Shown: in pieces, positions 5,095-29,237 of the stretch
How the letters are laid out: each line of letters starts with the position of its first letter
Position numbering within the stretch: the stretch's first letter is position 1
NCBI GenBank assembly: GCA_964016885.1
Contig: CAXHJY010001201.1
Location: 1 to 31,239, forward strand
Source of the DNA: Eledone cirrhosa
Taxonomy: Eukaryota
Direction: 5' to 3'
Length of the DNA stretch: 31,239 nucleotides
The notes under the pieces: generated by a model
Seen by the model: the letters and a program-made list of their open reading frames with translations, nothing else
Database searches by the model: none
Told to the model about the DNA's origin: nothing
Program-made: the position numbers and the translations under genes

Positions 5095-5142
<48 letters not shown>

Positions 5143-5146
<4 letters not shown>

Positions 5147-5327
5147 CGAAGGAGGTGTGGTAAGGAACCAGATGGACCATAACGCACCAGAGTACTCCAT
5201 ACTTAGGGTAGTAGAGTGGGTTATAGGAAAATGTTTGACCCCGACGGCCGGCATAGCTCAGACGGCAGAGCGTCCAGAAATACCCCGTCGAAACGGCTTG
5301 AGCTCTGCCGCTGGGGTCAAACATTTT

Positions 5328-5333
<6 letters not shown>
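5143..5333. mobile_element. Family A fold-back element with HHR 3' half
   Basis: Inverted arms TATAGGAAAATGTTTGACCCC / GGGGTCAAACATTTTCCTATA; GAAACGGC-TTGAGCTCT-GCCG at 5290; tail on the minus strand; (TA)n both sides. Confidence 0.8.
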
Positions 5334-8473: not shown

Positions 8474-8583
8474 ATATATATATATGTTGTATTTATAACC
8501 AATGACCACTACCCATTCCACTCCTCGCCCTATCCTACCACCTGAATAGAGCTATAAATACAACATTTATTTTTGGAAAGCCA

Positions 8584-8629
8584 GATTCCTGATGATTTCT
8601 AAAGAATGAAACAGTGCTAGTCCTGTAGA

Positions 8630-8631
<2 letters not shown>
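8584..8631 (+). ncRNA. Type I hammerhead ribozyme (family D; element ~8495-8633)
   Basis: ttc CTGATGA tttctaaagaat GAAA cag-tgctagtc-ctg TA|gaa. TATAAATA lies ~35 nt upstream. Confidence 0.7.
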
Positions 8632-8663
<32 letters not shown>

Positions 8664-8745
8664 GTTATTCCGGGTTGAATCGGAGGTAACCACAGTAAGT
8701 AAGGTACTCAATACATAGCAGAGTATAAAAGTTTTAATATAGATG

Positions 8746-8796
8746 AGATTCTACAGGACTAGAACTGTTTCATTCATTAGAAATCATCAGGAATCT
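8746..8796 (-). ncRNA. Type I hammerhead ribozyme (family D; element ~8661-8886)
   Basis: Minus: agattc CTGATGA tttctaatgaat GAAA cag-ttctagtc-ctg TA|gaatct. Perfect 6-bp stem I. Confidence 0.8.
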
Positions 8797-9412
8797 GGGT
8801 ATCAAAAAATAACTATGGTATATATAGGTCTCTACAAGTGGTAGGAGAGGGTGGACAGTGGGATGGGTGTAGGTCATTGGTTGATAGAATTCATTAAAAG
8901 CTAATTTTACAAAGCTATAGTTTATTTTTATTTTTAGAGTTATATATATATATATATATATATATATGAATGTATGTATAGTATATTTGACAATATACCG
9001 TATGTTTAATTAAAAACATTTAGAAGACCATACGCTATCAGTTTTAAAGTAGTGATTATGTCACTTCTTTCCGGTGAAAATTTGGAGACCTAGCAGGTTA
9101 ACATACCTAGAGTTTACAGATATATAGGAACAAGGTTTTCCACATTTTTGATCGGGTGGTATAAGTCTATTACATTGACCCTCAATATCTAACTGGTATT
9201 CCATTGTACCGACCACTTGGTGATGTCTTGGTGGTATTTGGTAACGTAAATATCGGTAGCTAAACACGGCAAAGTCTTTCGATCGTCGTCTTAACGATTC
9301 TCCTTCTATACGACATCGTTAAAATCCCTGCCCTCCACCCCTTTTTAAGTGCTATTTTAATAATAAACAGGTTCGGACTCTCTTTGCAATTGTTTACGGC
9401 TTTCTCTCACAC

Positions 9413-10731: not shown

Positions 10732-11869
10732 TCTCTATCTCTTGTGCATACATATACACATACTTAAATATATATTCTCATACACTCACTGTCTATCTCT
10801 CATGCATACATATACATATATCTATATCTGTATATATATATATATATATACACACATAGTCTCTCCGTCTGTCTCCCATGCATACACACACACATACACA
10901 TACATACACAACAACATACACACAAATACAATCGGACAGGATCAATTACGAGGTACGAATGTGTAACTTGTTTATAGTATCATTACGGACGGCCTAAAAT
11001 ACGCAAAGGGTTGGGTTAATAAGAGTAAAATGAAAAACAAAAGAAAGAAGAACAATATACTCCAATTCAAAACTAAATAAAAACAAAACAATATGGAGGA
11101 TAAAGAACAATGTGTCGCCATTTTGAATTGTTGGTTCGAGTCAAATAATCCTTTTGTTAAAAGGATAAATAATTATGAAAATATAAACAAAGCTACCTCG
11201 AAGATCGAGTTGAGACGCGGGTGTATTAGAATTCGTAGAATAATGAGAAAAACTCAATGTAAGAATATCGGCCAAAATAGTAAAATGCCGTCAATGAGGG
11301 CGTCGGGTAAAATCTTACCTTAAAGGATAGTATTAGAATTTATAGAATAATGGGAAAATCTCAACGTAAGGACAGCTACCAAAACAGCAAAATGCCGCCA
11401 ATAACGCCGTCGAGTAAAGACTTATCTCAAAGGACAGGAATAAACGGCTAGACGTGTGTTGACCCACAGAAATGAGATGAAGAAAATTGAGAACACGAAC
11501 ATGAACGAAAGGAAAGCACACAAACATCATATAATCCTCCTCAGCTCTTATACCGCAACGATTTAAAATTGTCAAAATAAACCTATCAACAGAGAGGCCA
11601 AACTTAAAAGCAAAGTGTGGATTGACGAAGAATTCTACTTTAAGTGTCTTTTTTATAAATACCATATGGTTTACACATGTGTGCATGTTTATGCTATGCA
11701 AATATGCAGTTATAGTCTATTGTATATTCTTGCATATAACGTGCTGAGAGAACGTTGGGGTGCAGGTGCCCGAACACCTCGCCAAATCAAGATGGAAGCA
11801 ATTTAAGTTTCGGTTCCAAACACAACAGGAACGCATTCATTTTAATTAAATACGCTAATGTAATAAATA

Positions 11870-12042
11870 TTACACGAGATTCGCGTAAACGCGAGAATTT
11901 TCGTGAACATGATGGTTTTTGTAAACAAAAGGTGGTTCTGTAAAACGCGAAGGTTTTCGTAAACGTGAGGGTTTTCGTGAATGCGAGGGTTTTTGTAATC
12001 GCGAGATTTTTGAAAGTGAAGATTTTTGAAAACGTGAGGGTC
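11870..12042. repeat. Degenerate ~18-bp tandem repeat (AACGYGAGGGTTTTCGTA-like)
   Basis: Recurrent CG(C/T)GAG(G/A)...TTTT units. Confidence 0.6.
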
Positions 12043-12189
12043 TCGGGTGGTTTTGTTATATTTCTTTCGTGTAGAATCTATGAAAATAAATATAATTTTC
12101 ATTTCAAAAGTGTTCGTTATTTCTTCATTGCTTTTATAATCATCTTTATTTTTATATTTTCTTCGTTTGCTTCAACAATAGACAGAGGG

Positions 12190-12244
<55 letters not shown>

Positions 12245-12366
12245 AGAGAGAGAGAGAGAGGGGTGGGAGGGGCAGATAAAGGAGAGGGGAGAGAAGACGT
12301 GGTGTAGAGAGAGTGAGGGAGGGAAGATAAATAGATAGATATATATATATATATGACAGTGTGGGA

Positions 12367-12412
<46 letters not shown>

Positions 12413-12417
<5 letters not shown>

Positions 12418-12528
12418 AACCAGTAAGACCCCGGGGTTTTACTGGTTCCTATCACTCACTCTACTACCCTAAGTATTGAGTACTTTGGTGCGTTATGGTC
12501 CACCTGGGTCCTTACCACATTTCCTTCG

Positions 12529-12532
<4 letters not shown>
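12413..12532 (+). mobile_element. Family A element with a spacerless terminal hairpin
   Basis: ATAGGAACCAGTAAGACCCC|GGGGTTTTACTGGTTCCTAT, then the family A tail; (TA)n both sides. Confidence 0.85.
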
Positions 12533-12578
<46 letters not shown>

Positions 12579-12705
12579 TCTCTCTGTTTATTCTGCTCTC
12601 TCTCTCCCTTTCCTTCTCTATCTTTCTATTTCTCCATAACCCAACGGCTTATTTTAAAAATATCCAATACTAATAATTAACGTTATAACCCCATCCGAGA
12701 GCTTC

Positions 12706-12961
12706 CAACAGAATTGGTCGCATTCTTTAAGGGTATGTCAATATTTATTTATAAAACTGATCTATATTATATTTTATCTCATGAAAGCACACCATAATTT
12801 AACTTGGTGTCCTTGAAATATGTATAATTAAATAAATATGGTTTTATAAATATAGTTTCCATTTGTTAATATCGTATTTTTACTCCAATTATTTGTTGAG
12901 TGCTTTATATCAGTTATAAAAATATTTGCTTGTGGTATCCCAACAATTTGAATAGAACTGT

Positions 12962-12962
<1 letters not shown>
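12706..12962 (+). mobile_element. Family B element; HHR (12770-12834) has core mutation CTCATGA
   Basis: Near-identical to 15117-15372 and 20703-20918; G5>C is predicted to inactivate it. Confidence 0.85.
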
Positions 12963-12994
<32 letters not shown>

Positions 12995-12999
<5 letters not shown>

Positions 13000-13175
13000 A
13001 ACAAGTAAGACCCCGACGGCTGAGCTCAAGCCGTTTCGAGTCCAGAATTAGCCGTCGAAACGGCTTGAGCTCAGCCGTCGGGGTCTTACTTGTTCCTATT
13101 ACCCACTCTACTACCCTAAGTATTGAGTACTTTGGTGCGTTATGGTCCACCTGGTTCCTTATCACATTTCCTTCG

Positions 13176-13180
<5 letters not shown>
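12995..13180 (+). mobile_element. Family A fold-back element with HHR 3' half on both arms
   Basis: ~44-bp inverted arms; GAAA cggc-ttgagctca-gccg TC|ggggtc at 13057-13085; TA-flanked. Confidence 0.85.
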
Positions 13181-13212
<32 letters not shown>

Positions 13213-13642
13213 TATTTGAGAAGTATACACACAAACATGCGCATGTACATATATGCATATATATATTTATATCTATATAAATATATTTATATATATGTAT
13301 GAATATTTCAAAAGTATACACACACGCACATACATACATACATACATACATACATACATACATACATACATACATACACATGCATACATACATACACACA
13401 TGCATACATAAAAATACACGCATGCATACATACACACACATTTTGACAGATATATATATGTTTATATATATATATGCTTATATATATACGTTTATATATA
13501 TATATATATATATACACGAGAGGTGGGTTCTCTCAGTCTGTTGTTTCTGTCTTATCAATATTTGTAATCTTGTCAACCGACCATTTTGTCTTTTGTCAAC
13601 GTGAAAATTATTTTGTCACAGAATTAAGTGGAACGCGAATAA

Positions 13643-13671
<29 letters not shown>

Positions 13672-13676
<5 letters not shown>

Positions 13677-13835
13677 AACATATAGGAATATATATAAATA
13701 TAAATGTATGTATATATACACAAACATATAGGAATATATATAAATATAAATGTATGTATATATACACAAACATATAGGAATATATATAAATATAAATGTA
13801 TGTATATATACACAAACATATAGGAATATATATAC
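13672..13835. repeat. 46-bp tandem repeat x~4
   Basis: GGAAT anchor at 13685, 13731, 13777, 13823. Confidence 0.85.
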
Positions 13836-14080
13836 ATATACATATTGGAATATATATATATACACAAAGACATATATATGTATGTATATGTATATCTATA
13901 TATATACATGTGTGTGTATATATAAACATGTATGTATACAGATTATTATCTCGAAATTTGGATAATGAAGAGTGGTAAAAAAAAAATGAAGTTGAAAATT
14001 ACATCGACTGTATAGGAAAAAATATATATGTATGTATGTGTGTATGTATATCTTTGTGTAAATATATTTATATATATATA

Positions 14081-14091
14081 TCATTTTGATA

Positions 14092-14126
<35 letters not shown>

Positions 14127-14251
14127 TTTAGACAGTTTTAAATATATATATATATATATATATCATTTAGACAGTTTTAAATATATATATATATATATAT
14201 CATTTAGACAGTTTTAAATATATATATATATATATATATATCATTTAGACA

Positions 14252-14302
<51 letters not shown>

Positions 14303-14347
14303 TTTAGACAGTTTTATATATATATATATATATATATCATTTAGACA

Positions 14348-14355
<8 letters not shown>
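14081..14355. repeat. TCATTTAGACAGTTTT x7 with variable (TA)n spacers
   Basis: Motif at 14081, 14124, 14163, 14200, 14241, 14300, 14337. Confidence 0.9.
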
Positions 14356-14401
<46 letters not shown>

Positions 14402-14533
14402 CATATATATAATTCTCTAAATGATATATATATGTATATAAAGGTATACATACACACATATATACGTTTGAGAGAAAAGAGTACTCAATACTAAAGCAGA
14501 GTTTAAATATTAATATATTTTGGTTATCTAGTG

Positions 14534-14584
14534 AATGCTGTTACTCGGTGTTACTTGGAGTTTCACCAGCTCATAGACAGGATT
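14534..14584 (-). ncRNA. Degenerate hammerhead ribozyme (core CT-ATGA, G5 deleted)
   Basis: Minus: aatcctgt CTATGA gctggt GAAA ctc...gag TA|acagcatt. The downstream tail ACTCTGCTTTAGTATTGAGTAC resembles family D. Confidence 0.6.
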
Positions 14585-14962
14585 TTCAAACATGATAGCG
14601 ATGTTCTTTGACAAATATGTCACTGGTTCTATCTAATATCTTATCTCATCACCCTGTGTATGCCCAGGTGAAGCCCAATGAGTTGGGGAGGGAGAAAGGC
14701 CAAGAAATAAGGAAAAATATGGCAGAAGAATCGATCCCAGTACAGGGAAAATTAATCTGTGAAGGAATTTGAACTGAAACGTGAGAGAAGCCAAGATGAA
14801 TATTGGAAATCGACTTTGAACTCGCTGGCTTGAATCAAGACATACGATGTATTTTTATTTTTTCAGGATCGATCGACTTTCGTCAAATCGGACCTAGGAA
14901 ACAATGTTTCCGTTGGTCTTTCCAGTTGCTAATACTATCTATCGGTCGCAACTCCAGGTAGA

Positions 14963-15820: not shown

Positions 15821-15875
15821 ACTGCTATATATATTTCGGTGACAGCCATCTTTAGTTGTGACCTCTTCAGGCAGT
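15821..15875 (-). ncRNA. Type I hammerhead ribozyme (family C, intact)
   Basis: Minus: actgc CTGAAGA ggtcacaactaaagatggctgtcacc GAAA tatata TA|gcagt, followed by AATAAA. Confidence 0.8.
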
Positions 15876-16083
15876 CTGAATTAGTGTGGTAGAGACAAGT
15901 ACACATGTTGTTGATGTGTTTAACTTTGTCAATACTCTGATATGTCCAGTTCCTGGTTGGGTTGTTATTTCATTGAGGAACTGGAATTATGATTCAACCC
16001 AACCAGGAACTGGGCATATCAGAGTATTGACGGAGTTAAATACCTCAACAACATGTGTACTCGTCTCTACCACACTAATTCGG

Positions 16084-16138
16084 ACTGCCTGAAGAGGTCA
16101 CAACCAAAGATGGCTGTCACCCAAATATATATAGCAGT
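16084..16138 (+). ncRNA. Hammerhead ribozyme (family C) with GAAA>CAAA
   Basis: Mirror of 15821-15875; C at 16122 replaces catalytic G12. Confidence 0.7.
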
Positions 16139-20583: not shown

Positions 20584-20648
20584 TATTTCATTATACATAT
20601 TTCAAGGACACCAAGTTAAATTATGGTGTGCTTTCATCAGATAAAATA
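20584..20648 (-). ncRNA. Type I hammerhead ribozyme (family B, short arm of fold-back 20541-20918)
   Basis: Minus: tattttat CTGATGA aag-c-acacca...tggtgt-c-ctt GAAA tatgta TA|atgaaata. Confidence 0.85.
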
Positions 20649-20767
20649 TAATATATAGATCAGTTTTATAAATAAATATTGACATACCCTTAAAAAATGC
20701 AACCAACAGTAATGGTTGCATTCTTTAAGGGTATGTCAATATTTATTTATAAAACTGATCTATATTA

Positions 20768-20832
20768 TATTTTGTCTGATGAAAGCACACCATAATTTAA
20801 CTTGGTGTCCTTGAAATATGTATAATGAAATA
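20768..20832 (+). ncRNA. Type I hammerhead ribozyme (family B, long arm)
   Basis: CTGATGA 20776-20782, GAAA 20813-20816, predicted cleavage after 20824. Confidence 0.85.
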
Positions 20833-28589: not shown

Positions 28590-28595
<6 letters not shown>

Positions 28596-28751
28596 AAGTA
28601 TGACCCCGACGGCAGAGCTTAAGCCTAGCCGTCGATACGGCTTCAGCTCTGCCGTCGGGGTCATACTTTTTCCTATCTCCACTCTACTACTCTAAGTATT
28701 GAGTACTGTGGTGCGTTATGGTCCATCTGGTTCCTTACCACATTTCCTTTG

Positions 28752-28756
<5 letters not shown>
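28590..28756 (+). mobile_element. Family A fold-back element
   Basis: GAAAAAGTATGACCCCGACGGCAGAGCT / AGCTCTGCCGTCGGGGTCATACTTTTTC plus tail; TA-flanked. Confidence 0.85.
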
Positions 28757-29169: not shown

Positions 29170-29237
29170 TACCCTAAGTATTGAGTACTTTGGTGCGTTT
29201 GGTCCACCTGGTTCCTTACCACATTTCCTTCGTTATA
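29170..29237 (+). mobile_element. Family A 3' tail only
   Basis: TACCCTAAGTATTGAGTACTTTGGTGCG...CCTTCGTTATA runs into (TA)n. Confidence 0.8.

Follow-up and report, generated by a model that had tools for sequence, protein, structure and literature searches.

Penelope-like elements (PLEs) of the Hydra clade are characterized, in the portion of Craig et al. 2021 (PMC8557442) on which we draw, by an RWK-like motif, DKT (not DKG), a CxCX5C linker, CxxC and CxH motifs, the absence of GxK/R-F/Y and insertion into (TA)n. Among the known features of PLEs are inverted 5'-truncated partners and a tail on one side only (PMC8557442). The same source lists the formation of the inverted 5' ends as an open question, terms the function of the hammerhead in endonuclease-bearing PLEs unclear and, in that portion, contains no mapping of 5' ends onto the cut site. 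For PLE hammerheads, a U3-A8 core with a long helix II and a short helix I is described in the part of the literature consulted (PMC4209133).

Two further systems are relevant for comparison. In PAc Poseidon of the green anole, in vitro work showed extension of both strands by the PLE protein, beginning at two internal start sites (Frangieh et al. 2024, PMC11167929). Within the available part of that study, insertion in vitro did not depend on cleavage, uncut RNA served as the principal template and none of the RNA reads terminated at the site. In R2, an HDV-like ribozyme cut sets the normal 5' end of the RNA and leaves its trace in genomic 5' junctions; the cDNA is joined to target DNA (Eickbush et al. 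2013, PMC3774820, in part).

Here we analysed a stretch of 31,239 nucleotides from Eledone cirrhosa (contig CAXHJY010001201.1, forward strand), referred to as the window. The first-pass annotation had reported a spacerless palindrome at 12413-12452, centred exactly on a predicted ribozyme cleavage site, and had read it as a fossil of in vivo cleavage followed by joining of two cDNA ends. The palindrome was borne out: its arms, 12413-12432 and 12433-12452, are reverse complements in 19 of 20 pairs with zero spacer around the centre at 12432/12433, the sole mismatch being a G.T pair at 12427/12438. It sits between two (TA)n tracts, and the right arm runs on for 80 further bases of a repeat termed family A (Table 1). 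Judged from genome-wide sequence comparison, this copy is a 120-bp insertion of a Hydra-clade PLE in (TA)n, the two arms of which meet head to head at the predicted hammerhead site, probably because both were reverse-transcribed up to the 5' end of self-cleaved RNA and then joined.

Table 1. Family A insertion at 12413-12532 with its flanks, and other family A copies in the window. Element positions are counted from the predicted cut.
Feature	Position	Strand	Remarks
(TA)n target microsatellite, left flank	12370..12415	.	Final bases shared with left arm (TAT microhomology)
Left (inverted) arm	12413..12432	-	Element +1 to +20
Spacerless head-to-head junction	12432..12433	.	Predicted hammerhead cleavage site; CG dinucleotide microhomology
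Right arm	12433..12532	+	Element +1 to +100: 3' strand of stem I, remaining pseudo-LTR, tail
(TA)n target microsatellite, right flank	12530..12576	.	Seen in sequence
Neighbouring family copy	12995..13179	+	Left arm inverted, reaching about -26; right arm from A(-41)=13039
Older family copy with inverted 5' arm	5142..5330	-	Sequence match
Family copy with inverted arm, junction upstream of cut site	28592..28756	+	Sequence match
Short 3' fragment of family, without inverted arm	29170..29237	+	Sequence match

Assignment of the parent element

The 3.0-Gb genome contains 13,553 exact matches to a 45-nt piece of family A, an anchor that under-represents copies of the TG subfamily (6 among 72 tagged copies, compared with 6,921 genome-wide). 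Tracing long copies upstream led to tandem units with a period of 3,542 bp and a 718-aa ORF (locus L271). Its motifs FDIES, YRDD, VIYQC and YIG point, as motifs only, to a reverse transcriptase (RT) and, at the C terminus, an endonuclease of GIY-YIG type; RWR is located at residue 36, DKT at 116, CNCPDRSIC at 571, CNLC at 669 and CKH at 697, and neither DKG nor G.[KR][FY] was found in the 718 residues. Pfam returned no family for any of three protein fragments, and a PDB sequence search gave no match. Nearly all listed 3' ends of copies adjoin (TA)n. An inverted arm was called in 63 of 91 sampled copies, and the tail (+20 to +100) is present on one arm only. By its motifs and its (TA)n target, family A is assigned as the end of a Hydra-clade PLE with a single ORF for RT and GIY-YIG domains, i.e. 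a new member within an already known clade.

The element is like the described Hydra-clade PLEs in RW[KR], DKT, the CxCX5C linker, CxxC, CxH and the C-terminal GIY-YIG-type domain, and also in (TA)n targeting, a pseudo-LTR hammerhead, tandem units, the inverted 5'-truncated partner and the tail (PMC8557442, in part). It differs in unit size (3.5 kb versus generally <3 kb in described Hydra families), in tail length (about 80 nt versus the 30-40 bp typical for PLEs) and in a hammerhead with U3-A8 core and long stem II, unlike those described for the clade in the available part of that paper (PMC8557442). The Naiad clade was ruled out by the C-terminal position of the endonuclease. A non-LTR retrozyme, with tandem hammerheads and no ORF, was rejected as well: the short copies have no core, and the tandem units seen are coding elements of 3.5 kb.

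The locus L271 (G000:C1:91472900-91482899) is a tandem array of the 3,542-bp elements with five ribozyme matches listed. Two of its ORFs are complete and open, each spanning about 785 codons from one stop to the next, which suggests recent activity of the family. Family A is abundant in four sequencing runs, where no listed piece crosses the junction. A search across sequencing runs gave contigs only, and a single run, with a share of 0.11, is on record as RNA. A different PLE ORF of similar type is present in the same genome (L240:3511-5753, minus strand).

Predicted hammerhead and copies in the window

Long copies (2,543 pattern matches) additionally carry ACCCC, a core that reads UUGANAA or CUGANAA and, for a long stem II, its 5' strand. 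Folded without constraints, the natural L271 copy has as its minimum-energy structure a type I hammerhead (-23.2 kcal/mol), in which UUGANAA, GAAA and GUC form the core together with stems I-III and the predicted cut is GUC/GGGGU (the slash marks the cut). Among 30 long copies, the core 3-8 pair is U3-A8 in 20 and a C3/A8 mismatch in 10; stem I is formed in 23, while only 11 were scored as having stem III in their minimum-energy fold. The long copies have a type I hammerhead with the site GTC/GGGG, where cleavage is predicted. The window alone could not show this site; the complete hammerhead of the long copies would, according to its fold, cut exactly where the first-pass annotation had placed it. 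HDV-like and type II/III hammerhead ribozymes were discarded, as a motif scan found no core downstream, and a type I core was found upstream.

The neighbouring copy at 12995-13179 has GAAA at 13057-13060, followed by stem III and the predicted cut at 13079/13080; GAAAC at 13057 and GTC/GGGGTC with its first G at 13080 are both found as had been claimed. Its part 12995-13097 is itself a head-to-head palindrome, the left arm of which stops at the same CCTAT that forms the outer end in most listed head-to-head copies, including that at 12413. Since longer copies fold back too, the fold-back is the normal 5' structure of family A. The 5' half of the ribozyme is absent from all five family copies found in the window and present only in long copies elsewhere. 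An Rfam scan of the window, in which copies without this half are found, gave no ribozyme or hammerhead family among the 150 of 264 rows listed; those were below-threshold hairpin and microsatellite matches.

The right arm of the palindromic copy differs from the intact tandem unit in L271 at 6 of 100 nt, and the letters at +7/+12 place the copy in the 'TG' subfamily. An identical spacerless junction with matching flanks is present on a second contig (G000:C1039, L002), therefore a one-off assembly slip is unlikely. This contig is a near-duplicate of window positions 11560-14614, with microsatellite length as the main difference, and represents either an alternate haplotype or a duplication. 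Genome-wide, perfect spacerless palindromes occur at about 98 sites (196 strand matches to one tight pattern, most sites being counted on both strands). The reversed control of the pattern gave no match in the genome, which argues against chance.

A main 5' end upstream of the cut site

Of the 13,553 anchor matches, the first 91, picked regardless of their 5' ends, were used to determine right-arm starts. By script, 50 start at -34 to -47, 8 far upstream and 7 at -1 to +2. Where junctions are symmetric, the aligner extends too far at -45 to -47; it also mis-called L130, which read by eye raises the number near the cut site to 8 of 91. Ends at the cut site are found in a minority of copies. The main class is centred on TTAGT/TCAGT at about -41, a sequence which we take to resemble an initiator.

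The next non-templated cDNA base after leaving the template at -41 is C in 13 and T in 2 cases, compared with 5 and 19 at +1 (p=8e-5), where the first non-templated base is mostly A or T. The C excess at -41 looks as if a cap had been copied, and the contrast with +1 is what a capped end at the former and an uncapped one at the latter would give. On this basis, -41 (13039 in the window and its equivalents genome-wide) is likely a capped transcription start. Promoters of PLEs have been located in the pseudo-LTR (PMC2377424, in part). The main 5' end falls inside loop II of the ribozyme; RNA starting there would be without the catalytic core, which would be removed from most transcripts in this way.

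Copy breakpoints peak at the predicted cut site

Junctions near the site were taken from the first 100 of 939 matches, which yielded 98 junctions. Of these, 57 were uniquely resolved and 41 were ambiguous and excluded from the peak count; positions upstream of about -3 are poorly sampled. Among these near-site junctions, 23 of 44 resolved left arms and 24 of 48 resolved right arms end at +1, against a mean background over +2 to +12 of 1.9 (left) and 2.2 (right) for any one position (p about 5e-14 for either arm). The breakpoints are thus not uniform, and form a single-base peak at GTC/GGGG, in agreement with the reading of the first-pass annotation. In a hand tally of the first 100 of 280 copies with both arms at the site, 31 joints are blunt, 48 contain non-templated bases (extra bases between CCCC and GGGG), 13 GAC/GTC (here the slash separates alternatives) and 8 are ambiguous. 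Among about 25 copies without an inverted arm, 14 end at T/A microhomology with the target and 2 are ambiguous; of the remaining 9 ends, 7 start at +1 (hand tally; p=1.6e-6), so the peak needs no palindrome. Amplification of a single short master copy is rejected as its source, as apex inserts vary between copies.

The spacerless class, to which the copy in the window belongs, is less informative. Spacerless palindromes at self-complementary dinucleotides were seen 7 times at +1, 3 times at +12/13, twice at +8/9 and once at +11, and the junction of the +1 class is ambiguous over -1 to +2. The argument for ends at the cut site is carried by the non-templated and arm-less classes, not by the spacerless one. 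Because CCCC/GGGG may also be obtained from longer arms annealed at the CG microhomology, the copy in the window is weak evidence taken alone, being one of about 98 from the least diagnostic class. A self-cleaved 3' RNA as template, as put forward earlier, agrees with the hammerhead and the +1 peak at the level of the family and was overstated for this single copy.

The state of the core differs between subfamilies: the U3-A8 pair is present in 13 of 13 TG and 2 of 2 TT long copies, and 6 of 8 CC copies have the C3/A8 mismatch. Junctions with both arms at +1, scaled from the first 100 listed, amount to about 1.7% in TG, 2.3% in TT and 0.65% in CC (p=1.4e-4), relative to backgrounds of 6,921 TG, 2,237 TT and 6,414 CC uncut copies. 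They are about 3-fold rarer in the subfamily with the often mismatched core, a comparison confounded by differences in age and source loci. Ends at +1 nevertheless persist in the CC subfamily, and 12 of 13 genuine ones have a tail variant found with the mismatched core, a linkage seen in five long copies only. These ends need residual or trans cleavage, or a ribozyme-independent stop.

The latter would be the case if the peak reflected a sequence- or structure-driven RT stop on uncut RNA, after the G4 run or on entering stem III, with the match to the ribozyme site as a by-product of the fold. The +1 ends of the mostly mismatched CC subfamily fit this explanation, as does the location of a cut site at a helix junction by construction. 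However, the feet of the predicted hairpin are at +5 and -2, not at +1, and no peak was observed at +6 or -1 among the resolved ends; moreover, subfamilies that share the GTC/GGGG context show the 3-fold difference, which tracks core integrity. We therefore regard an RT stop as unlikely. A second, minor transcription start at +1 (pyrimidine-purine C/G) or another processing site appears still more remote: the element apparently has an internal start nearby at -41 and the known promoter location would suit it, but there is no excess of extra C from a copied cap, unlike at -41, and the position equals the predicted cut to the base. A splice acceptor at +1 was excluded, as no AG precedes the site.

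A different objection accepts cleavage as the origin of the family peak and derives the copy in the window from longer arms that were trimmed and annealed at the CG microhomology, either at insertion or by later loss of the apex. It draws on the ambiguity of the spacerless junction, on spacerless forms at other palindromic dinucleotides and on the frequency of microhomology joins (about 9 of the first 51 sites join via a repeat inside stem III, hand tally). On the other hand, the spacerless copies (20 TG, 8 TT, 2 CC and 1 other in a hand tally of 31) share the subfamily skew of the non-templated ones. A later deletion of the apex had been named as a possible refutation, and the second contig with the same locus has the same short apex and no longer form. 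This origin is considered improbable, to about the same degree as an RT stop. Cleaved RNA remains the preferred explanation, and the population of ends suggests that RNA cut by the ribozyme likely does serve as a template, if a minor one, with in vivo cleavage inferred from DNA.

Joining of the two arms

How the arms came together can be approached from copies in which they differ. Within single insertions, arms from different subfamilies occur in L015, L042, L066 and L104; such pairs of subfamily letters are not explicable by self-copying, and two cDNAs joined at their 3' ends are the best model for them. Arm lengths differ within one copy, and in L102 and L110 one arm ends at -40 and its partner at the cut site. 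The arms are identical over +1 to +17 in 85 of 112 comparisons, with some copies counted twice. Joining of two cDNA ends, the second part of the initial proposal, is supported, as it fits the polarity of the arms, their unequal lengths, the non-templated inserts and the chimeric arms. In the window, the left arm on the plus strand reads as a cDNA that would have been primed from the left flank.

A possible course of insertion would be as follows. The endonuclease would open both strands of (TA)n, and each target 3' end would pair with UAU in the RNA, at +20 for one arm and at +100 for the other, and prime its own cDNA. Both cDNAs would be extended to the 5' end of the RNA and then fused by host end-joining, either blunt, via added bases or via microhomology. 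The majority of templates would be capped transcripts from -41 without catalytic core, and a minority read-through transcripts self-cut at +1.

In L1 twin priming, two target 3' ends likewise each prime a cDNA, which leads to an inversion whose joint shows microhomology or added bases, and one RNA supplies different parts as templates for the two cDNAs. Here, in contrast, both cDNAs would copy the same stretch, sometimes from different RNAs, and a palindrome results. PAc is alike in the extension of both target strands, two internal RT starts defining the tail, an AT-rich target and a hammerhead near the ORF start; it differs in the lack of RNA reads at the cut site in the available data, whereas in E. 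cirrhosa genomic copies end there in a measurable minority (PMC11167929). With R2 the element shares a ribozyme cut that would set the 5' end of the RNA and is visible in 5' junctions of genomic copies, but the ribozyme is a hammerhead, the route a minor one and the joint a head-to-head connection of cDNA to cDNA (PMC3774820, in part).

In a literature search covering few subscription journals, no paper was found that maps PLE copy ends to the hammerhead cut. The new part is the population evidence, drawn from genomic copies, for ribozyme-cut RNA as a likely, though minor, PLE template. A young family of >13,000 copies, whose ends show a peak at the predicted site and differ according to core integrity, may serve as a DNA read-out of germ-line cleavage, to which the single copy in the window adds little alone. 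Family A also supplies a defined RNA for a cleavage assay, and the chimeric arms constrain how the inverted 5' ends of PLEs form. Only tentatively, PLE 5' junctions might be taken as a genome-scale record of RNA 5' ends that comprises in vivo hammerhead cleavage, a capped start in loop II sparing most transcripts and two cDNAs made from two RNAs, core-less or mismatched RNAs undergoing trans cleavage by an active sibling RNA with which they share a dimeric particle.

Other hammerhead-like repeats in the window

A second repeat family with a compact hammerhead-like motif, CTGATGA...GAAA, is located at 12760-12965 (plus strand), at about 15170 (plus strand) and at 20600-20820 (both strands). The copy at 12760 ends at (TA)n and two copies are joined head to head at 20600-20820. 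This family is likely another PLE and could provide an independent test of cut-site junctions. In a third family, at 8560-8820, CTGATGA...GAAAC motifs are found on opposite strands around a (TA)n tract. A long inverted repeat at 15840-16120 has CTGAAGA motifs on both arms and is probably another head-to-head PLE insertion.
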